Positions 1 to 11,070 of a DNA stretch of 64,000 bases are shown piece by piece; positions within the stretch are counted from its first letter, which is position 1; every line of letters starts with the position of its first letter. The position numbers and the translations under genes are program-made. The stretch lies in IMG/VR virus record IMGVR_UViG_3300028833_000004; one strand, 5' to 3'. Source of the stretch: a virus. Below the pieces are notes generated by a model, which was not told where the DNA came from, searched no databases, and worked only from the letters and a program-made list of their open reading frames with translations.

Positions 1-25
1 GGTAATTGTGGAGTGCTAGCCCTAA

Positions 26-70
26 GGCCCATCTATGGAGCAGGACACAGTTCGATTCTGTGTATGGGCC
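26..70 (+). ncRNA. tRNA-like minihelix (acceptor-like helix plus canonical T-arm); not a complete tRNA
   Basis: GGCCCAT (26-32) is the exact complement of ATGGGCC (64-70). Between them CACAG(46-50)-TTCGATT(51-57)-CTGTG(58-62) is a textbook T-arm. The 13 nt left over cannot form D or anticodon arms. Confidence 0.3.
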
Positions 71-349
71 CTATGCCTATGAAACAAGATGGAGTCCCTG
101 CTGGATGCATGCGATTTAACGTCGCCTTGTATCAAGCAAGACTCGAATCCTTGGAGAGTTTCTTAGGCTCTAATCCGTATGCCGGGGAATACGAACTGGC
201 CTTATGCTGGGGAGTATCTCTGTCCGCGGCAATAGCCACCATGCATAAAATAATGGTTGGGATTAGAGCCGGGATACTTCAATCAAAATTCCCAATAAAT
301 GGGAAGAAGATTGGAGTAAAAGGAAACTATTATGTCGTATATAAGGCAT

Positions 350-1150
350 AACTCCTGCAGAGGGATGCGTATTCTGCATTACTCATAACGCATAACGATA
401 GATCTTAGCTATTACAAAACACCTCCTTGTAATAGCCGGACAAGTATAGGAGGTATAAATTCGACAGACTATGAATATGTATGTCGACATGGCTGTAGAG
501 CCTCACGGCCCTACGTCTGAGAATGACATCGGGATTGCCATTCTACAGGCGTTAGAATCAAGATTGGAGAGTCCTAATGCTTTCTAGGCATCTCCAATCA
601 AGTACTGTCTGTACGCAAATTCTGATGAGGACATAGCCTATTTGAGATCTTGGATTTGTAGTAATCTTAGATCTACAAATGGCAAATCTGTCCTATCAGA
701 ATTTGACTACGGTCAGTAGTAGGGCTCCTGAGTAAGACTCCGAGTGTAATGAGCTCGGGAACAGAAATCATCCCTGTATTGATATTGGTTTATCATACAG
801 GCCTAAAGTTGGCCGTACATGGACACCACTATGTGTAGGGCCTAAATTAAAGAGCATCATCTCTCTAAACTGTCTAGCGGCTTGACCACATCCTTTCGGT
901 ACTGGCGGTGAAAATCCAAACCGGGCTAGCAAGCAGCTCATCTTGTAAAACCGAGCCACCTAAGCATTCATATATGTGAGCTTTCGGCAGCAGCATGTAT
1001 GAAAGACGGGCATCCTCAATATGATGTAAAACTATTGACATCAGATAAGATGTAAAAATCCCCACTACCGGGGTGACATGGTACTCGGATTGTTAATTGT
1101 CTGGCCGAGCGGACTAGAGCAGTTCTTGACCCACGGGCTGTCGACGATCC
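350..1150. ncRNA. candidate large structured noncoding RNA or structured noncoding DNA (unclassified)
   Basis: No convincing ORF; only short, mutually overlapping ORFs in different frames. Many long helices: 408-417/427-436 (10 bp perfect), 562-570/591-599 (9 bp), 617-633/689-704 (16 bp with one bulge) enclosing 654-661/673-680 (8 bp), and 773-779/795-801 (7 bp). The strand is not determined. Confidence 0.3.
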
Positions 1151-1180
1151 ACATTTTATGTGGATATTTTGGGTATTCAT

Positions 1181-1849
1181 ATGGCAACAAAGAATATTAT
1201 TGCCGAAGTAATTAATGCGAGCAAAGATGCTCGCCAATTTAGTGAGGAAGAGCTTCAAAAGAAGCTTGCCTCTCTAAATGGGCGAGATGGCTCGCCCCTC
1301 AAAGCCGAAGAGGAGCTTTGGCTCCTCCCGGTGCTCCTTCCAAGCTGGAAGTGGAAGGGCATTGAGGGTGAATACCCTGCACTTCCAGCCATCAACCAGA
1401 ACGGACACCTGGTCGTAATAGGTCTTGGAAGCCTCGCTGGAGGTTCTGGGTACCTAGAGGATCCAGGCGAAGGAACCTGGGAAATTTCGGAGACCGGATG
1501 GTGGTATCTAAAACCGTCTGAGGTCCCCGAAGGTGGTAGCAGGGCCACCAAAGTCTGGGGGTTGTCGAGGAGTCTTAAAGACTCATTCAACGACAACCTC
1601 GAGCTCAGAGGGGTCGTATCCCTCAAAGTAGAGGAGGACGGCTATTGTTACGGGCCGAGGCTCGTAAAGGCCGGGAGTCCCGACGAGGGACGAGAGAGGG
1701 CAAGCCTGCGCTTTAAGCGCAACACCCATTTCTGGGAAGGCAAGGCCCAGCCAATAACCGCCATTCCGAGCAAACTTAAAAAGTTTGCAGAGAAGCTGGG
1801 TTTACCGATGGAATGGCTAAAACCATTCCCAGCTGACTTCTACTGCTGA
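1181..1849 (+). CDS. hypothetical protein (G+C-rich ORFan, N-terminus MATKN)
   Basis: Long ORF with 33/60 G+C at 1381-1440. I place the start at ATG 1181 because its first codons ATGGCAACnAAnAAT (MATKN) recur at the next ORF. A perfect 14-bp terminator follows. No motif recognised. Confidence 0.55.
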   Translation: MATKNIIAEVINASKDARQFSEEELQKKLASLNGRDGSPLKAEEELWLLPVLLPSWKWKGIEGEYPALPAINQNGHLVVIGLGSLAGGSGYLEDPGEGTWEISETGWWYLKPSEVPEGGSRATKVWGLSRSLKDSFNDNLELRGVVSLKVEEDGYCYGPRLVKAGSPDEGRERASLRFKRNTHFWEGKAQPITAIPSKLKKFAEKLGLPMEWLKPFPADFYC

Positions 1850-1850
1850 A

Positions 1851-1892
1851 ATAAAGGATCCTAGAGAAATCTAGGATCCTTTATTTTTTTTG
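1851..1892. terminator. intrinsic (bidirectional-type) terminator
   Basis: ATAAAGGATCCTAG (1851-1864) pairs perfectly with CTAGGATCCTTTAT (1871-1884). The loop is AGAAAT, with a T-run at 1885-1891 and an A-rich 5' flank. Confidence 0.85.
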
Positions 1893-1970
1893 GCGACTCA
1901 TCATGGCCCCAGGTACTTTATAGCGCATAAAGCGTATTATTATTTTTTTTTAATTTAATATTTTTATTGT

Positions 1971-2639
1971 ATGGCAACGAAAAATTCGTATCTGGGTGAA
2001 AAATTCAACCCAGCAGATGAGAGCGATCGTGCTCTCAAAGACATGAAGGCACTCGAATCAGTTAATTTTGAGCGCCAAGCTCCATTAACTGAAGGTGCAA
2101 CTTATATCCTCCTACCGCAGGAAAATACAGCGGCTGTATATACTATCCCAGGAGTTGGTGATAGAGTTTCTCGCCGATTCTGGGCAGTTGAGCTTAACCG
2201 AAAGAATGAGCCTGTATCTATACGTAGTATAGGCTATTCATCGATAGCCAAAATGGGATATCAAGAAAAGACTTCAGCTCAACCTGCTGCACCAGAGGTT
2301 CCTGCATATCAGGATAAAGAAGGAAAATGGCACCCGAAACGTGGGTTAAGTTATGTGTTCTCATGCGAGGACCACAACTTCATTAAGGCAAACCCAGAGA
2401 CAATGCTTATGGAGATAAAGACTCCTACGGCATTGAAAGTGATGCGTAGAGCCGAAGTGTGGGTTGCATCCTTTAAGGATCAAGCATTAGTAGTAAAGGA
2501 CGGGATGATTGTTCCTGAAGTAGATGACCGATTCGTGTTCTTCAAAACCCTCGTAGCCCCAACTGAAGATATAGTTGAGGCTTGCAAAAAGGTCCTTGAA
2601 AATGAAGACTCAATTCAAGACTGCCTTTACCTGTTGTAA
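1971..2639 (+). CDS. hypothetical protein (second ORFan starting MATKN)
   Basis: 222-aa ORF preceded by an AT-rich leader. It shares the MATKN start with 1181..1849. No motif recognised. Confidence 0.6.
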   Translation: MATKNSYLGEKFNPADESDRALKDMKALESVNFERQAPLTEGATYILLPQENTAAVYTIPGVGDRVSRRFWAVELNRKNEPVSIRSIGYSSIAKMGYQEKTSAQPAAPEVPAYQDKEGKWHPKRGLSYVFSCEDHNFIKANPETMLMEIKTPTALKVMRRAEVWVASFKDQALVVKDGMIVPEVDDRFVFFKTLVAPTEDIVEACKKVLENEDSIQDCLYLL

Positions 2640-2709
2640 GGGTAGTCTTGAAGGTAACACTTTTAAAACCGAAAATATTTCATATAAGTGTTATTTTATA
2701 AAGGGCCGA

Positions 2710-2770
2710 CCGAAACCAGCAGACGGTGAAATAGTTTATGCCATGTTTCGCCGTCTGTCTGATGATTCGG
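2710..2770 (+). other. long imperfect hairpin downstream of ORF 1971..2639
   Basis: CAGACGG(T)GAAA (2720-2731) pairs with TTTC(G)CCGTCTG (2746-2757). The outer pair is CCGAA (2710-2714) with TTCGG (2766-2770). There is no clean T-run, so its role as a terminator is uncertain. Confidence 0.4.
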
Positions 2771-2779
2771 TATTATTAT

Positions 2780-3330
2780 TAATGTATCTCCCTGAATGGT
2801 CAGGAGTATAAATATTGTTGACCAGGAATTTGTCAGTAGTATTGAAACTGTCAATATGTAGTTATATAACATCCGCAGTATTATACATTGAAATATGTAT
2901 AATTGTCTAACAAGTTATGTATAATAAGTTGAAGGTGAAATCTAAATCCTAATCCTGTATAGTTAGACTACAGGTAGCATGTGCAATACCTATAGGTCAT
3001 GCTGTGTGTATATACCCTAAGAGTATCTAGTTCCTATGCTTATAAATGGAAATGGTAGGGGTATTATACACACAAAAAATTGTATTTTGTTAATCAAAAG
3101 TAGTTCAGTATTAAAATGAAGCATAGCGGCTGGTAACCGATTAGAGAGTACCAGACATAGAGTGAAGTCTGTGTCGAAACACATTGCTATAGGAAGACCT
3201 CTATAGATAAAAGGACAATGTGTATGCAATTTCCTTACTGCATAAATCCGAGACTGTTGGTAACAGTTGAACTTCACAGACAGCTATATAGGTGGACTAA
3301 CCATCCGCATCTAGACTATATAGCTTTTTT
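2780..3330 (+). ncRNA. candidate ~0.55-kb structured RNA ending at an intrinsic terminator (unclassified)
   Basis: ORF-free on the + strand. Helices at 3004-3017/3059-3073 (14 bp, one bulge) and 3253-3258/3262-3267. It ends with the 3283-3330 terminator. The 5' end is a guess. Confidence 0.3.
3283..3330 (+). terminator. intrinsic terminator not attached to an ORF
   Basis: GCTATATAG (3283-3291) pairs perfectly with CTATATAGC (3316-3324), followed by TTTTTT (3325-3330). Confidence 0.7.
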
Positions 3331-3581
3331 ACTCATACCACTGTGATAGGTGGTATGGGTCCTATCTTGCTTTCTGATATACAATCAGTGGACAACTGCT
3401 TACTTTGAAGAATAAAGGTATGGCAAGAGCTGCACTCTTACTAGGTTCTTGAGTGATAACTTCAAAGCGCTGCGTTTATTAGAGCGTGGAAACAGAAATC
3501 TAATACTCTATTTCTTATTCAGAGTATAACTGAATATATCCCATCCGATGGTAGTGAAAACGATGTAAAACTAAACCTACC

Positions 3582-3607
3582 AATTTTTATTAACAATCTA
3601 AAAATTA
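3582..3607 (+). promoter_or_regulatory. 26-nt upstream motif copy 1 (AATTTTTATTAACAATCTAAAAATTA)
   Basis: Matches 3993-4018 at 25 of 26 positions. Ends 8 nt before ATG 3616. Confidence 0.4.
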
Positions 3608-3615
3608 TTAGTAAT

Positions 3616-3984
3616 ATGCAAACAATTATGTATCAAGATGAAAAAGGATATAGATATATCCCAGTTTTCCAACCAGAGTTATCAAACTTGTTTGAATATA
3701 CTCGAAAAAAAGTATATCACATCTATACAGATAATCCTAAATGGTGTGGAAAAATATTACCAGAAGTAGTAAATGACACATCTATAGACGTAGGTACAAG
3801 AACTTATTGGCTGGAGAGAACTAATAACTCCATAGAGTGGGGACTAAAACCTTATCACAAGATATCATTTAAAGACATTGAAGAATTAGATGAAGATATA
3901 TGTGAAATATATAATTTTGAGTCAATTGGAATTGATTCAAGTGGAGTTTATGAATATGAAATTATCTATCCCTATGATGATTAG
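3616..3984 (+). CDS. hypothetical protein
   Basis: AT-rich 122-aa ORF ending on TAG. It is preceded by the conserved 26-nt motif. Confidence 0.65.
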   Translation: MQTIMYQDEKGYRYIPVFQPELSNLFEYTRKKVYHIYTDNPKWCGKILPEVVNDTSIDVGTRTYWLERTNNSIEWGLKPYHKISFKDIEELDEDICEIYNFESIGIDSSGVYEYEIIYPYDD

Positions 3985-3992
3985 GGATAGAT

Positions 3993-4018
3993 AATTTTTA
4001 TTAACAATTTAAAAATTA
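3993..4018 (+). promoter_or_regulatory. 26-nt upstream motif copy 2 (AATTTTTATTAACAATTTAAAAATTA)
   Basis: Second copy of the motif. Ends 6 nt before ATG 4025. Confidence 0.4.
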
Positions 4019-4024
4019 AAAAAT

Positions 4025-4324
4025 ATGAAAAAAGTATATAACGTTGTTCATCACTATGATGTTGATGGCGGAATTGGATATGCCATCAGTCAAAAAGAAG
4101 TTCTATTTATAACTTCTGTCAAAAAAGTGGCAGAAGAATTTATAGATAAATATTCCCATGATCATGTCTATGATGTTCCATATTCAGAACTTCATATGGG
4201 ATTATTAAAAGTGGAAGAATTCAATGTAATAGAATCTTGGGAGGATATCCCCAAAAATATAATTGAATGGGGAGATGAAAACAAAAGTGAGACAGACAAC
4301 TATAATCCGGATGACTATCATTAA
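4025..4324 (+). CDS. hypothetical protein
   Basis: 99-aa AT-rich ORF preceded by the conserved upstream motif. Confidence 0.65.
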   Translation: MKKVYNVVHHYDVDGGIGYAISQKEVLFITSVKKVAEEFIDKYSHDHVYDVPYSELHMGLLKVEEFNVIESWEDIPKNIIEWGDENKSETDNYNPDDYH

Positions 4325-4382
4325 GATTATGAGTTTTCTATCTCAGACTGGTTAGATTGGTAATTATTAAAATATATAAATT

Positions 4383-4601
4383 ATGAAGAAGATATTGAAT
4401 TATATACTGTTGTACGGCACAATAGTGTACAGCTTGCTATTTTTAATGGCGGCAGAGTCATTAATCGAAAGCCTTCCCGCAATAGCCTGTATTATGATTT
4501 TAATACAGGCAACATTAATATTCTTATGTATAGGAATATTTGGAGATGGAAAGTGGCGTGAATATGTACCTAAATGGATAAGTAGGATGGATGAAGATTA
4601 A
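4383..4601 (+). CDS. small membrane protein (two hydrophobic segments)
   Basis: 72-aa ORF with the hydrophobic stretches ILLYGTIVYSLLFLMAA and AIACIMILIQATLIFLCIGIF. Confidence 0.6.
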   Translation: MKKILNYILLYGTIVYSLLFLMAAESLIESLPAIACIMILIQATLIFLCIGIFGDGKWREYVPKWISRMDED

Positions 4602-4804
4602 TTAAATCATGATATATCCTTATATAATGAAACCCTTTTTGACTAACCATTTATGGAGGAATAAATGGAAGCAGGTAAGAAGACATAATAGAAATTGACC
4701 AATTTTCATTATCCTGAGGATCTGGGTACACACAGTATCCTGAAAGTCTTCAATTTGTTCCTAAGAGAGTGATATCTGTTAGGGGCACTAACCCTGCAAA
4801 GGGA

Positions 4805-4878
4805 TTTGTCGTATTAATTTGTGTTTTTCCTGTCGAGAGAGTCTTAATCCTTATTTGGTTGGAAGATGGTTTAGAAGA
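4805..4878 (+). repeat. 74-nt repeat, module order A(4805-4840)-B(4841-4878)
   Basis: A is TTTGTCGTATTAATTTGTGTTTTTCCTGTCGAGAGA. B is GTCTTAATCCTTATTTGGTTGGAAGATGGTTTAGAAGA. Both modules recur at 6350-6423 in the opposite order. Confidence 0.9.
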
Positions 4879-5101
4879 CATGCGCGTGCGGTTATATAAG
4901 TAGTGTGTCTTCCGAGTAGTGTGTCTTGCGAACGACTCGGATGAACGACTACAAATTAACGTTTTTTTAGTAACTTGTTTGGGCATGTTAAGTCTTGGTG
5001 TTGATTTCATGTTCTCGAAGTGTCCGTTTGAGGTATATTCGGACGATTTTTATATTACTATTTCAAAAGTGGAGGCACCACGATAAAAACTGTTTATTGT
5101 T

Positions 5102-5383
5102 ATGTATTTATTGAACGCATTTAGTTTGCAGATGGTGGAAACACCTGTATCTGTGAAATTTTCTGAAATAGAAGTGAACGAATTGCCCAAAGAATTAACA
5201 TCAGCCATCGGGCATGCGGATACTGCTGCTGTTCTTGGTGTTGAATGCAATCGCATAAATGTTAAATTAGCAAAAGGCGATACCGCATACGTTGCCCAAC
5301 TGATGGGCGGACGACTCCCCGAAGGGAGCACAACTCTCCCCGAAGGATTCCACTTCAAGTTTATTAAGGTGGACGTTGAATAA
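5102..5383 (+). CDS. STIV B116-like / DUF1874 family small protein
   Basis: YLLNAFSLQM near the N-terminus, then SAIGHADTAAVLG...NRINVKLAKGDTAYVAQLMGGRLPEG. This parallels my recollection of B116 (FLTNAFSINM...NAIGHDST...NRVEVKMNEGDEALIIM..RLEEG). Confidence 0.7.
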   Translation: MYLLNAFSLQMVETPVSVKFSEIEVNELPKELTSAIGHADTAAVLGVECNRINVKLAKGDTAYVAQLMGGRLPEGSTTLPEGFHFKFIKVDVE

Positions 5384-5499
5384 ATCCCTTATTCAAAATA
5401 ATCAATACGTCAAAGAGCTAATAAATAGGATTTTTGACTAAAATGACAAATCATAAATCCTTAATTAAAAATTACTTATATTTATAAACCTACAATCAA

Positions 5500-5925
5500 A
5501 TGCCATTTAATGAGATGTGGGAAAGTTTAGTGAATATGTATAAGAGTACTGTAATGTTTCTCCGCTCAAATCGGAGAAATCGTCAAACAAAAATGACGAG
5601 GGGCGAATATTGTCCAGGAGAGCTTAAAAGTTCTCAGGCAATTCGCCAAATACTTTTTGATTTGAGAGGTAAGTTAATTCACTTTCCCAAGGATTCTTGG
5701 GTGTACTACATCTTAAGAGACCTTAAGATGGAAGAGTTCCGAAGAGGTGAAATAACCTACTGGAGATGTTGCCCGTACTTTGAGAGGGTGTACATTAACT
5801 TCAATGATGAAGCTAATTGGAACGAACTCCAAAGTACAGGTAAACTCTCCTGGGCTCGGGATGAGTATATATCATGGCTAAAAGCTGTGATGCCGCTCCG
5901 TTCTGAGATTATCCAGGTAGAGTGA
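5500..5925 (+). CDS. hypothetical protein
   Basis: 141-aa ORF with no recognisable motif. Composition is intermediate. Confidence 0.5.
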   Translation: MPFNEMWESLVNMYKSTVMFLRSNRRNRQTKMTRGEYCPGELKSSQAIRQILFDLRGKLIHFPKDSWVYYILRDLKMEEFRRGEITYWRCCPYFERVYINFNDEANWNELQSTGKLSWARDEYISWLKAVMPLRSEIIQVE

Positions 5926-6259
5926 TCTCCATCGGAGTTCCCACTACAGCAATGTGAATGGCAAGAGAGTGGGTGAAAGAGAGTTGCCCGCTGGTCACGT
6001 AAGACCACAGTCGAAGGTTACACGGAATCTTAAAGATGTAACCGAGTATTTAAAGTTGGGGACAAGTGATTGGTTTTGCTTGTACTTTCTAAATGGGTGT
6101 ACGCCATTCCGTCGGGAATAGTATTCTACTACCATTCCTTGTAAACGACCCGACGCTAAATAATAAACGTTCGACAACGGAAGGACTTGTGCTATCAGGC
6201 TGAACGGGCGGAAATATAGCAATCGCATGGGTTAGGTGCGTCCGTGCGGTTGCTTTTTT
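5926..6259 (+). ncRNA. candidate ~330-nt structured RNA or 3' UTR element capped by a terminator (unclassified)
   Basis: 32/60 G+C at 5941-6000. Helices at 6016-6022/6037-6043 (7 bp), 6110-6116/6149-6155 (7 bp), and 6048-6055/6085-6094 enclosing 6062-6066/6079-6083. The terminator lies at 6219-6259. Confidence 0.3.
6219..6259 (+). terminator. intrinsic terminator
   Basis: GCAATCGCA (6219-6227) pairs with TGCGGTTGC (6245-6253) over 9 bp, one of them a G-U pair. TTTTTT follows at 6254-6259. Confidence 0.65.
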
Positions 6260-6349
6260 GTTATGCACCAAAACGATTTGAACGGATGAAGAGTCTGAAA
6301 ATTTGGCTTGTCAATGTATCTAATTGGCAAGTTGTAGAACATTGCGGCG

Positions 6350-6423
6350 GTCTTAATCCTTATTTGGTTGGAAGATGGTTTAGAAGATTTGTCGTATTAA
6401 TTTGTGTTTTACCTGTCGAGAGA
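6350..6423 (+). repeat. 74-nt repeat, module order B(6350-6387)-A(6388-6423)
   Basis: B is identical to 4841-4878. A differs from 4805-4840 by one substitution (TTTTTCC versus TTTTACC). Confidence 0.9.
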
Positions 6424-6480
6424 CAGTAAGATCCTGTTGTGAAACAGTGTCTCTGGCATTTTAGATGTTAATAATATACG

Positions 6481-6508
6481 GGTATAGGAGTTTGAATACT
6501 CCCATACC
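6481..6508. repeat. conserved hairpin element, copy 1
   Basis: GGTATAGGAGT, loop ttgaat, ACTCCCATACC. This gives 10 of 11 bp. The flanks GGGTATAG... and ...ATACCTyCTAA are shared with copy 2. Confidence 0.8.
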
Positions 6509-6575
6509 TCCTAAAGTAATAAAGTTGTTAAAACTTTGCTGAGGCCGAATATACTCGCTTAGGCTTTGTTACTTG

Positions 6576-6603
6576 GGTATAGAGATTTGGTTATCTCTAT
6601 ACC
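6576..6603. repeat. conserved hairpin element, copy 2
   Basis: GGTATAGAGAT, loop ttggtt, ATCTCTATACC. This gives 11 of 11 bp. Three stem positions differ from copy 1 on both strands in a compensatory way. Confidence 0.8.
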
Positions 6604-6667
6604 TTCTAATTTAATTGAAGAATTTATTTGTTGTTTATTGGGTTGTTTTGTTGAAGTTTGTCATGAG

Positions 6668-6723
6668 GATTACTTAATTGGGGTTAAGTAATCAGAACTC
6701 TCCCCTGAAATATGGGGAGAGTT
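6668..6723. terminator. tandem perfect hairpins at the 3' end of the - strand gene (possible terminator)
   Basis: GATTACTTAA (6668-6677) pairs with TTAAGTAATC (6684-6693). AACTCTCCCC (6696-6705) pairs with GGGGAGAGTT (6714-6723). The second hairpin abuts the stop of 6724..7476. T-runs are weak. Confidence 0.5.
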
Positions 6724-7476
6724 TTATAAAACTATATCTTGAAAATTAACTTTATTTTCTTGTATATGTTTTACCAGTGCATTAATTGTTTTAGATTGAT
6801 GTTCTAACTTCTCTTGTAATTGTTTATATTTAAGAGATAAATCATCATGTTCTGATTGTAGAGATTCAATTTTAGAATCTGTTTCTAAGAATTTAAGAGC
6901 AATAGTATTGGCGAATTCATTAAAATTATATATTCGCTGGTAATTACATTCTAAATCAGTATGCCCATTATCTGGGATTTTTACCAATATATTTTTATCT
7001 TCTAAGGATTTCTCATATTTTTGTAAAGTTCTGGGATCTATATTGAGATAATTTGCTAATTGTTTATTACTATATGTAATAATTCCATTTTGTGCAACTG
7101 GATCTTTAAACATAAATTGTTGACTCATTACAATCATCGACTTATCTCTAGAGGATAAATTAGAATCATTTAGAAAATCAAAAGAAAATATTTCAAATTT
7201 ATTATAATCATTAAAGGTATATATAGAAGATGTGCCAGGTCTCTTAGTTATATTAATATATCCTGCATTTTCTAACCTTTTAAGTCCATTTAAAATAGTT
7301 TTTCTATCTAATTCGGAATCTTTTACAATAGTGGAAATTTGTGGATATGCCTGTTTTGTTTCTAAATTCATATATTTTTTAATACAGGCATAGATATAGG
7401 GATCATTTAGTGTTAATCCTTGCTTTTTTAAATCCATATTTGGGATTTGTACGTGCTGTTTTGATAATTCATTCAT
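6724..7476 (-). CDS. double winged-helix DNA-binding protein (putative replication initiator or early regulator)
   Basis: Two wHTH-like segments: YPQISTIVKDSELDRKTILNGLKRLENAGYINITKR and ITYSNKQLANYLNIDPRTLQKYEKSLEDKNILVKI. The C-terminus is coiled-coil. It is the only - strand gene of the early arm and is divergent from the iteron cluster. Confidence 0.5.
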   Translation of the reverse strand: MNELSKQHVQIPNMDLKKQGLTLNDPYIYACIKKYMNLETKQAYPQISTIVKDSELDRKTILNGLKRLENAGYINITKRPGTSSIYTFNDYNKFEIFSFDFLNDSNLSSRDKSMIVMSQQFMFKDPVAQNGIITYSNKQLANYLNIDPRTLQKYEKSLEDKNILVKIPDNGHTDLECNYQRIYNFNEFANTIALKFLETDSKIESLQSEHDDLSLKYKQLQEKLEHQSKTINALVKHIQENKVNFQDIVL

Positions 7477-7640: not shown

Positions 7641-7724
7641 TATACAAATTCGATACTACCCTATGCAAATTCGATACTACCCCCCTATGCAAAATTGGTA
7701 CTACCCTATGCAAAATTGGTACTC
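7641..7724 (+). repeat. four tandem ~21-nt iterons
   Basis: The four units are TATACAAATTCGATACTACC, CTATGCAAATTCGATACTACCC, CCTATGCAAAATTGGTACTACC and CTATGCAAAATTGGTACTCT. They sit in a very AT-rich divergent intergenic region. Confidence 0.85.
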
Positions 7725-7846: not shown

Positions 7847-7919
7847 GCCGCAATAGCTCAATGGATAGAGCAACTGACTTCTAATCAGTAGGTTGTAAGT
7901 TCGATTCTTACTTGCGGTA
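7847..7919 (+). tRNA. tRNA-Arg (anticodon TCT)
   Basis: The cloverleaf can be drawn by hand. Acceptor: GCCGCAA/TTGCGGT (G1-U72). D-arm: GCTC-AATGGATA-GAGC. Anticodon arm: ACTGA-CTTCTAA-TCAGT. T-arm: GTAAG-TTCGATT-CTTAC. Discriminator: A. Confidence 0.85.
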
Positions 7920-7990
7920 CTAGGGAGAGAGGAGTATCTCCACCCTCAAACACTCCCAACTGCTTACTAATCAGTTAAATATATTTTTTT

Positions 7991-10221: not shown

Positions 10222-11070
10222 ATGAAAACATTAACACAAAATAGTGTAATTGAACACGGATGGGATAAATTATCAGTTATAACGGCTGATATGATAGAAA
10301 AATATAGGTATACACAAATTGGGAAAAATGCTTTTAATCATTGCCATAGCCTTACCTCAATTACTATACCTAATAGTGTAACAACCATTGGACTTTATGC
10401 TTTCTATGATTGCACTAATCTTACCTTAATAACCATTCCAAATAGTGTAACAAAAATTGGGGATTATGCTTTCTATAATTGCCGTAGTCTTACCTCAATA
10501 ACAATACCAAATAGTGTAATAGCCATTGGGTGTTGGACTTTTTATAGATGTAATAATCTTACCTCAATTACTATTCCAAATAGTGTAACATACATTGGAA
10601 ATGGTGCTTTCTATCATTGCAGTAATCTTACCTCTATAATCATACCTAATAGTGTAACAACCATTGAAGATGATGCTTTTGCTGATTGTGGAATAAACCT
10701 GCCTAAAAAATACGATAATCAAGGTAGGTTAATTGCATATAAGGGATTTGATAAACACATGCAATGTCGTGGTTTTCAATACATTGAGGGTGAAACCTAC
10801 GAAACAGATAAAGCTAAGTTATGTGTATGTGGTTTTCATGCTTGTACAAATCCTCTTGACATATTTAACTATTATGCTGGTGAAATAAATAATAAAATGT
10901 TTATTCACGAAGTGTATCTTGAAGATGTAAGTGGTGAGGAAAAAAATGATAGTAAAGTAGTTAGTAAGAAAATAACCATAGGTCGAAGATTAACAATTGA
11001 AGATATTAATAATATATTACAAGATGAAAGAGTTAACACGAGACAATGTAACCAAACATGGATGGAATGA
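10222..11070 (+). CDS. BspA-type LRR protein (array copy 2)
   Basis: Same architecture as copy 1. Its 3' end reads through the start codon of copy 3, giving a 47-nt overlap. Confidence 0.8.

Follow-up and report, generated by a model that had tools for sequence, protein, structure and literature searches.

Hairpins between small phage genes can serve several ends. In phage T7, the hairpins that separate the early genes are internally looped and act as RNase III processing sites, and small RNAs (sRNAs) derived from 3' untranslated regions (3' UTRs) share a terminator with the mRNA upstream of them. The PeSL elements of T4-type phages are short motifs of a terminator plus a promoter that lie between orphan genes, bring about modular shuffling and are able to form mini-circles (PMC2839356, PMC4122927); they are multi-copy, combine a sigma-70-type early promoter with a stem-loop, and sit in hyperplastic regions (PMC2839356). 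Here we compare with these systems the segment 2640-3360, and the leader that follows it to 3615, in a 64,000-nucleotide (nt) stretch of phage DNA (IMG/VR record IMGVR_UViG_3300028833_000004), hereafter the window. An earlier inspection of the letters (the sequence-only reading) had taken this segment for a structured region without open reading frames (ORFs), closed by an orphan terminator and possibly giving rise to a noncoding transcript of 0.5-0.7 kb. We propose instead, with a probability of about one half, that it is a composite gene boundary comprising a small gene (2b), a 3' trailer, a terminator, a conserved hairpin (H) and the leader of the next gene. On balance it appears to be a mostly ordinary kind of phage gene boundary rather than a new large RNA gene. 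The main value of the analysis is corrective, with hairpin H and the gene 2b family as modest new items.

Under this proposal, gene 2b overlaps the stop codon of gene 2, and the roughly 520 lineage-specific nt that follow (2812-3330) would form the 3' trailer of an mRNA that carries genes 2 and 2b. The + strand intrinsic terminator at 3283-3330 would end that transcript, hairpin H would mark the border with the next gene cassette, and 3361-3615 would serve as the leader of a gene for 122 amino acids (aa). The terminator and hairpin H together would insulate neighbouring early transcription units, and the trailer itself may be mosaic filler left from cassette exchange.

Gene 2b accounts for the first 172 nt of the flagged segment. 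Both the JGI and the ENA annotations call it, and it is found at the same position and in the same frame in four divergent relatives (L030 818-997, L031 2553-2741, L032 711-884 and L038 693-863), so that it follows every gene 2 homologue retrieved. BLASTP values to the window copy are 6e-4 and 5e-4, and 2e-14 between L030 and L032, and a four-sequence alignment has seven invariant residues (C11, K13, G14, F21, A47, F49 and L58). The DNA can no longer be aligned among these relatives despite the similarity of the proteins. Gene 2b is a real small protein gene, conserved in five loci, and represents a small gene family not recognised before that accompanies a ~220-aa protein family in rumen-type phages. 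The claim that no + strand ORF follows position 2639 consequently fails for 2640-2811 and holds for 2812-3615, where TAA, TAG and TGA each occur several times in every one of the six frames. Because all three kinds of stop are so numerous, reading through any one of them would not restore a gene, and stop-codon recoding was rejected as the explanation of a hidden gene in 2640-3615.

Other searches of the noncoding stretch were equally empty. Six-frame translations of 2812-3615 with the stops masked matched nothing in Pfam or PHROG. The antisense ORF at 3017-3277 is present as described, and we consider it spurious because it has no homologue among 5.8 billion proteins and is frame-shifted in the variant strain L008, where a 1-nt indel leaves 78 aa with an altered C-terminus; it has no Pfam or PHROG match either. 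Comparison with Rfam 15, which includes ROOL, GOLLD, group I and II introns and ribozymes, gave no family for the segment: at the gathering threshold, the sole match in the window was a tRNA at 7847, ARAGORN added nothing in the segment, and permissive filters applied to the 1.1 kb from 2560 to 3660 returned best scores of 10-25 bits against thresholds of 50-154.

The terminator is exactly where the sequence-only reading had placed it. Its stem is formed by GCTATATAG (3283-3291) and CTATATAGC (3316-3324), followed by T6 (3325-3330), and its 24-nt loop contains a further helix of 5 bp; the hairpin folds at -15.0 kcal/mol (z -3.6), and the U-tract exists on the + strand only. Hairpins of this class, defined as a perfect stem of at least 9 bp, a loop of at most 30 nt and T6 within 2 nt, occur three times in the window on both strands, compared with 0.17 in dinucleotide shuffles. 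One of the other two, together with a similar hairpin followed by T5, lies at the 3' ends of gene 1 and the 122-aa gene. A simple terminator scan missed 3283-3330 because its loop is longer than 8 nt. The element has the structure of an intrinsic terminator, with a stem-loop and an immediate U-tract on the transcribed strand. The same strand carries genes 2 and 2b before it, and two RNA-like contigs end at 3252 and 3280. Judged by its sequence, 3283-3330 is a real-looking + strand intrinsic terminator at which transcription would stop in vivo, and it provides a concrete candidate for test.

Hairpin H begins directly after the T-run and is the sole intergenic element conserved in the distant relative L031 (L031 2759-2789, 84% identity with window 3335-3365), while the proteins on either side now share only ~35% identity. 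When the corresponding gap of L031 was aligned to window 2640-3615, the local score at hairpin H was 37 against a null of 20.4 +/- 2.1, and the next best alignment was at the null level. All 11 scored pairs persist across the window, L008 and L031 (33 of 33 cells standard); three of them have both partners changed and a fourth has one. Slid controls gave pairs in only 24-46% of cells, and a shuffle control is not significant with three sequences. The + strand folds at -17.7, -16.6 and -16.7 kcal/mol in the three lineages, and the minus strand at -12.3 and -10.3 kcal/mol in the two that were folded, 4-6 kcal/mol less stable. Because the + strand fold is the more stable, hairpin H most likely acts as a + strand RNA. 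Both a pattern search and a covariance model find it in single copy in the 64 kb. It offers a handle for studies of early-gene regulation and cassette exchange in Bacteroidota phages. A weak look-alike, CCTAA-gagaGTGATAtctg-TTAGG with a GTGATA loop, occurs at 4757-4790 (15 bits, E 0.6); this is the exact end point of the RNA-like contigs L004 and L012.

Comparison with relatives places several boundaries within the segment. In L031 the gene order is syntenic (gene 1-like ORF, terminator, a 16-nt box GGCGACTCAKCATGGC, gene 2-like ORF, 2b), with 17 nt from the 2b stop to hairpin H and 24 nt from there to the next gene, and no counterpart of 2812-3330. Given that only these 17 nt separate 2b from hairpin H in L031, 2812-3330 is a lineage-specific insertion in the window. 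The sequence that follows 2b in L038 is also free of ORFs, for at least 416 nt, but it is dissimilar and unrelated to the window. The L008 sequence matches window 2976-4011 at 98.2% identity (16 substitutions, 3 indels); upstream of 2976 it has an unrelated GC-rich gene of 182 aa, and the similarity of the two sequences there is not above shuffles. Since the match starts at 2976 behind a different gene, a mosaic breakpoint lies inside the segment. Divergence from L008 is ~9% in 2976-3110 and ~0.7% beyond, a gradient beside the breakpoint that looks like recombination history and not selection. Covariation among homologs, which the sequence-only reading had looked to for support, is thus confined to hairpin H: only L008 shares 2976-3330, no pair there is changed on both sides, and 2812-3330 does not behave as a conserved noncoding RNA. 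For that stretch, neither the sequence nor the helices are conserved, and a lack of helix conservation is among the outcomes that the sequence-only reading had itself named as speaking against its proposal.

The same comparison could reflect a scar of cassette turnover, in which 2812-3330 would be the remnant of one or more decayed genes, the terminator would be orphaned and only hairpin H would be under selection. This partly overlaps the composite boundary that we favour. The absence of the stretch in L031, the unrelated one in L038 and the partial one in L008 point to rapid gain and loss, the divergence from L008 has the pattern of a recombination tract, and the G+C content of the trailer region (31-40%) is intermediate between the cassette genes and the 30% backbone. 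Set against this are the numerous stops in all frames, the intact perfect stem and T6 of the terminator, which suggest maintenance, and an empty tblastx comparison of 2812-3330 with L030, L031 and L032. No frame has even a weak Pfam or PHROG match, although this is a weak test because the neighbouring genes are orphans too. We regard decay as an unlikely explanation of the stretch.

Contig ends give hints of transcription. Contig L005 (JGI 3300035054) joins window 1935-3252 to an internal piece of 5.8S rRNA in the same strand orientation, and in contig L006 (SRR10838750) TruSeq-type adapter sequence precedes window 1932-3280; look-ups in the L006 sample found no contig with gene 1, the 122-aa gene or a 99-aa gene. 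In a second sample, contigs break at the gene 1 terminator (1856 / 1909), and in a third they break only at 38-nt repeats, as in a DNA assembly. We infer that the first two samples, and not the repeat-breaking third, are RNA-derived, and that a + strand transcript would start at ~1910-1932, cover gene 2, 2b and the trailer, and stop at the terminator. Because L005 and L006 start upstream of gene 2, they favour a gene 2 mRNA with a long 3' trailer over a separate RNA gene. Of the proposed noncoding transcript, then, a + strand RNA ending at the terminator stays plausible, and a gene of its own is disfavoured. The box GGCGACTCAKCATGGC mentioned above lies directly 3' of the terminator before gene 2 (window 1895-1910, L031 1846-1861, L030 63-78), is kept in three lineages whose gene 2 proteins share only ~38% identity, and may be a promoter or a transcript 5' end; contig L004 begins right at its end (1909).

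Folding energy does not single out the segment. The helices listed in the sequence-only reading are all present (2720-2731/2746-2757, 3004-3017/3059-3073, 3253-3258/3262-3267, 3334-3341/3350-3357 and 3403-3410/3460-3467), and yet in rough scans of 200-nt windows with 20 shuffles each, the + strand of 2801-3500 has z scores of -0.6 to -2.1, not above a local background that averages -3.0 for 1-6900 (both strands, coding sequence included; -0.7 in the rest of the window). The core of the segment itself lies at only -1.3 to -2.1, whereas the coding sequence of gene 1 at 1201-1500 reaches -7.6 with a single dominant structure. Larger pieces give -3.2 (2976-3360), -4.1 (2640-2975) and -5.4 (2640-3330, only 20 shuffles), with similar values on the minus strand. 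Complementary codon pairs in protein segments rich in Lys, Glu and Leu may add to the folding of 1-6900. A rod-like fold of 1932-3330, of the obelisk or viroid type, was looked for and not seen. Because neighbouring coding sequence folds even better, folding energy alone does not justify calling RNA genes in the large ORF-free "structured" stretches of this early region.

Folding that is about equal on the two strands across 1-6900 would also be expected of an element acting at the DNA level, for instance an origin of replication, a packaging site or several operators for a regulator, whose hairpins would be palindromes in double-stranded DNA. The spacer at 2812-2975 does contain an operator-like arrangement: the palindrome ATTATACAT-N7-ATGTATAAT at 2879-2903 with a further, direct repeat 13 nt on, at 2917-2925. 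The underlying 8-mer TGTATAAT has 12 copies in the window, with three at 2880-2925 and a fourth at 3063-3070 (four within 190 nt), and it occurs also in the gaps before the genes at 10222 and 18056. The minus strand at 2909..2880 matches the sigma-70 consensus at 11 of 12 positions. From their arrangement, these clustered repeats may be operator sites or divergent promoters. The likely origin, however, is elsewhere: iteron-like direct repeats of the TATGCAAAWTYGRTACTACCC type at 7641-7723 lie by a minus-strand gene resembling replication initiators (6724-7476, HTH_36 / DnaD-like), itself beside an AT-rich region and tRNA-Arg(TCT) at 7847-7920, and this region is the probable replication origin. 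The T-run and the G.U pairs of hairpin H, 2716-2757 and 3004-3073, moreover, favour one strand, as in RNA. A DNA-level role for the segment therefore seems to us very improbable.

Several observations weigh against the trailer that we propose. The transcript evidence is composed of adapter and rRNA chimeras and contig ends, and no paper naming the accessions was found. Contig L004 passes the terminator, reaching 4757, and the terminator stem is AT-rich (only 3 G-C among 9 pairs) with a large loop. Hairpins at 2614-2652 and 2651-2697, right after gene 2, could already end its mRNA, in which case the terminator at 3283-3330 would need another transcript. In the robust helices of 2976-3360, each of the five L008 substitutions preserves pairing on the + strand, a signal of RNA structure that is suggestive only, given that about half of random transitions retain pairing on a given strand; 2976-3330 has only one divergent copy. 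Finally, tandem copies of TGTATAAT at 2896 and 2918, 50-75 nt upstream of the part shared with L008, are a possible internal promoter.

A rival reading is an independent structured noncoding RNA of ~350-420 nt on the + strand, made from a promoter at ~2900-2975 or cut from the gene 2 mRNA and ending at 3283-3330. This is the idea of the sequence-only reading with a shorter RNA, one that would be a mobile module able to follow different cassette genes. In its favour, the terminator is specific to the + strand without a gene of its own, the module 2976-3330 stands behind two unrelated genes in two strains, and the L008 changes 2989 C>T and 3068 A>G give G.U pairs on the + strand and A.C on the minus strand. 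The z score of 2976-3360 and its fold of -107 kcal/mol on the + strand versus -98 on the minus strand also agree with such an RNA, as do the TGTATAAT copies before two other genes and the hairpins that could stop the gene 2 mRNA early. Against it, permissive Rfam filters included, no family matches, L031 lacks the stretch and the L038 spacer is dissimilar, the structure signal is weaker than that of adjacent coding sequence, and the RNA-like contigs start before gene 2 and continue past 2900 without a break. No upstream element was seen to be shared, and a -10 box of the TATAAT type is not the promoter type expected in Bacteroidota. No further copy was found in phage GenBank records (near and distant mode), in IMG/VR (three DNA patterns and four protein-seeded scans), or in JGI metagenome contigs or GTDB genomes (two patterns each). 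The hairpin pattern has five matches in GTDB, in unrelated bacteria, which we attribute to chance because they have nothing else in common with the window. Nor are the ORF-free segments of the window paralogous, save for one 19-nt motif. We hence think a separate RNA unlikely. The fuller version, in which 2976-3330 (possibly from ~2910) would be a new, portable, early structured phage RNA of ~350-420 nt following interchangeable cassette genes, with hairpin H as an RNA operator or processing signal that a protein of the phage or the host recognises at the cassette borders of TAG-recoded rumen phages, is decidedly doubtful. Should the trailer prove to be a discrete RNA, it would exemplify a noncoding module that moves between phage gene cassettes.

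Features of the gene 2 to 122-aa gene interval, in window coordinates.
Feature	Position	Strand	Remarks
Gene 2, 222 aa	1971..2639	+	ORF; upstream gene of the transcription unit; beta-rich ~220-aa family, function not assigned
Gene 2b, 69 aa	2602..2811	+	+1 frame, overlaps the gene 2 stop; called by JGI and ENA
17-bp hairpin	2614..2652	+	Gene 2 stop (2637-2639) in loop; -24.4 kcal/mol, z -6.4
Strong hairpin	2716..2760	+	Helix 2720-2731/2746-2757, inside gene 2b; -25.0 (+) vs -19.7 (-) kcal/mol
Spacer, strain-specific, noncoding	2812..2975	.	Not in L008 (local alignment at shuffle level)
Module shared with L008	2976..3282	+	Chain of local hairpins: 2976-3003, 3004-3073, 3179-3222, 3253-3267
Antisense ORF, 86 aa	3017..3277	-	Spurious
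Intrinsic-terminator-like hairpin	3283..3330	+	9-bp perfect stem, inner 5-bp helix, T6
Hairpin H	3331..3360	+	12-bp stem, invariant GUGAUA hexaloop; starts directly after the terminator T-run
Leader of 122-aa gene	3361..3615	+	Probable promoter region; precedes the 122-aa gene (3616-3984)

The leader downstream of hairpin H folds weakly (z only -1.5), and the L008 substitutions at 3474 and 3522 break its predicted + strand pairs. Besides the helix 3403-3410/3460-3467, it contains the motif GGAAACAGAAATC (3488-3500) and the box AATTTTTATTAACAATCTAAAAATTA (3582-3607). A scan for the sigma-70-type promoter consensus, a type that the host probably does not use, found none at 3283-3400, and the Bacteroidota -7 motif TAnnTTTG and the box TATTAACAATYTAAAA were rejected as promoter markers because they are not enriched. 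Within the leader helix is a mini-ORF of 10 codons (3421-3453, MARAALLLGS), whose start ATGGCAAG resembles the ATGGCAAC starts of genes 1 and 2, and contig L012 starts at 3477. In the first ORF-free segment of the window, a 37-nt block (734-770) is 92% identical to L031 617-653; the core of this block, GGRAACAGAAATC with a short hairpin before it, is found again at 3488-3500 (two copies versus 0.17 expected). Short hairpins of the form GGGTGA-N-CTATTCCC are common to the ORF-free stretches of L038 (1090-1106 and 1207-1222) and L031 (3349-3363), with none in the window.

Gene 2 belongs to a family with 23 representatives at E<=1e-3 in an exhaustive HMMER search; a word-indexed protein search found no relatives for gene 2, the 122-aa gene or the antisense ORF. 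An AlphaFold model of gene 2 built from the family alignment has a pLDDT of 88 (the single-sequence model was poor), and comparison with the PDB gave no significant match, the top non-significant ones being folds of the single-stranded DNA-binding protein (SSB) type. Genes 1 and 2 both encode 222 aa and both start with MATKN, and homology of gene 1 to the gene 2 family was rejected for want of significance; that of the 182-aa gene of L008 is likewise not supported. As with gene 2, there is a hairpin at or over the stop codon of gene 1 (1849-1886) and of the 122-aa gene (3959-3997).

Two contigs, one of 117 kb from JGI and one of 158 kb from ENA, are identical to the window over its first 9 kb. 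Beyond ~9 kb follows a tightly packed + strand module for replication and nucleotide metabolism (DNA polymerase, helicase, ligase and NrdD). The first 8 kb differ from the remainder in having small orphan genes, varying G+C content and gaps of 0.5-1 kb, of which the flagged segment is one; the samples are rumen-type, and the segment is part of the variable early region of a large phage. Since only 5 of 63 genes have a Shine-Dalgarno-like motif and the closest cultured relatives are Cellulophaga phages, the host is probably a member of the Bacteroidota. Upstream of the window (L002 1-6959), ENA calls long minus-strand genes (570, 382, 266 and 254 aa), whereas the JGI calls on the same sequence are fragments of 30-87 aa. 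The phage thus probably recodes TAG in its late genes, because these minus-strand genes are long only in the calls that read through TAG; the ENA call also passes through the TAG that ends the 122-aa gene (3982-3984). No suppressor tRNA was found in the window, whose sole tRNA is tRNA-Arg(TCT). Two 38-nt blocks, A and B, occur in swapped order (A-B at 4803-4878, B-A at 6350-6423) with 97-100% identity. Contig L023 joins 6387 back to 4841 via block B, the junction expected for a 1.5-kb circle or tandem copy carrying a 93-aa and a 141-aa gene; a PeSL-like mini-circle may explain it, as may an assembly artefact of a k-mer shorter than the repeat.

The locus can now be set beside the known systems. 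From the ROOL and GOLLD RNAs, which the segment recalls in being hundreds of nt long, ORF-free, hairpin-rich, phage-borne and from rumen-type samples, it differs in having no covariance-model match at the thresholds tried, conservation in only one near-identical strain, and no multi-stem junction architecture supported by covariation. It is closer to intrinsic terminators and 3'-UTR sRNAs, in that a stem-loop and U-tract lie on the coding strand and the trailer would share the terminator of the upstream mRNA; compared with a typical 3' UTR, this trailer is unusually long for a phage (519 nt past 2b), and the terminator has an AT-rich stem and a branched loop. As in T7, hairpins stand at or over the stops of early genes (1849-1886, 2614-2652 and 3959-3997), with hairpin H between cassettes, and by analogy these could be elements that process or stabilise mRNA; unlike the T7 sites, hairpin H combines a perfect stem with a conserved hexaloop. 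The likeness to PeSLs extends further. Here, too, a short conserved stem-loop and terminator lie between small orphan genes in a hyperplastic early region, the adjacent genes are inserted or replaced between relatives (another gene in L008, 519 nt inserted relative to L031), those 519 nt extend up to hairpin H, the gene that follows the terminator and hairpin H is an orphan (122 aa), and the L023 junction (6387 to 4841 via a 38-nt repeat) recalls the mini-circles. Unlike PeSLs, hairpin H is present once in 64 kb with no recognisable promoter beside it, the host probably lacks promoters of the sigma-70 type, and L008 has its breakpoint at 2976 instead of at the hairpin. Because the element is not multi-copy and has no sigma-70-type promoter, we do not class the locus as a PeSL, for all that it resembles one in its position between exchanged cassettes.

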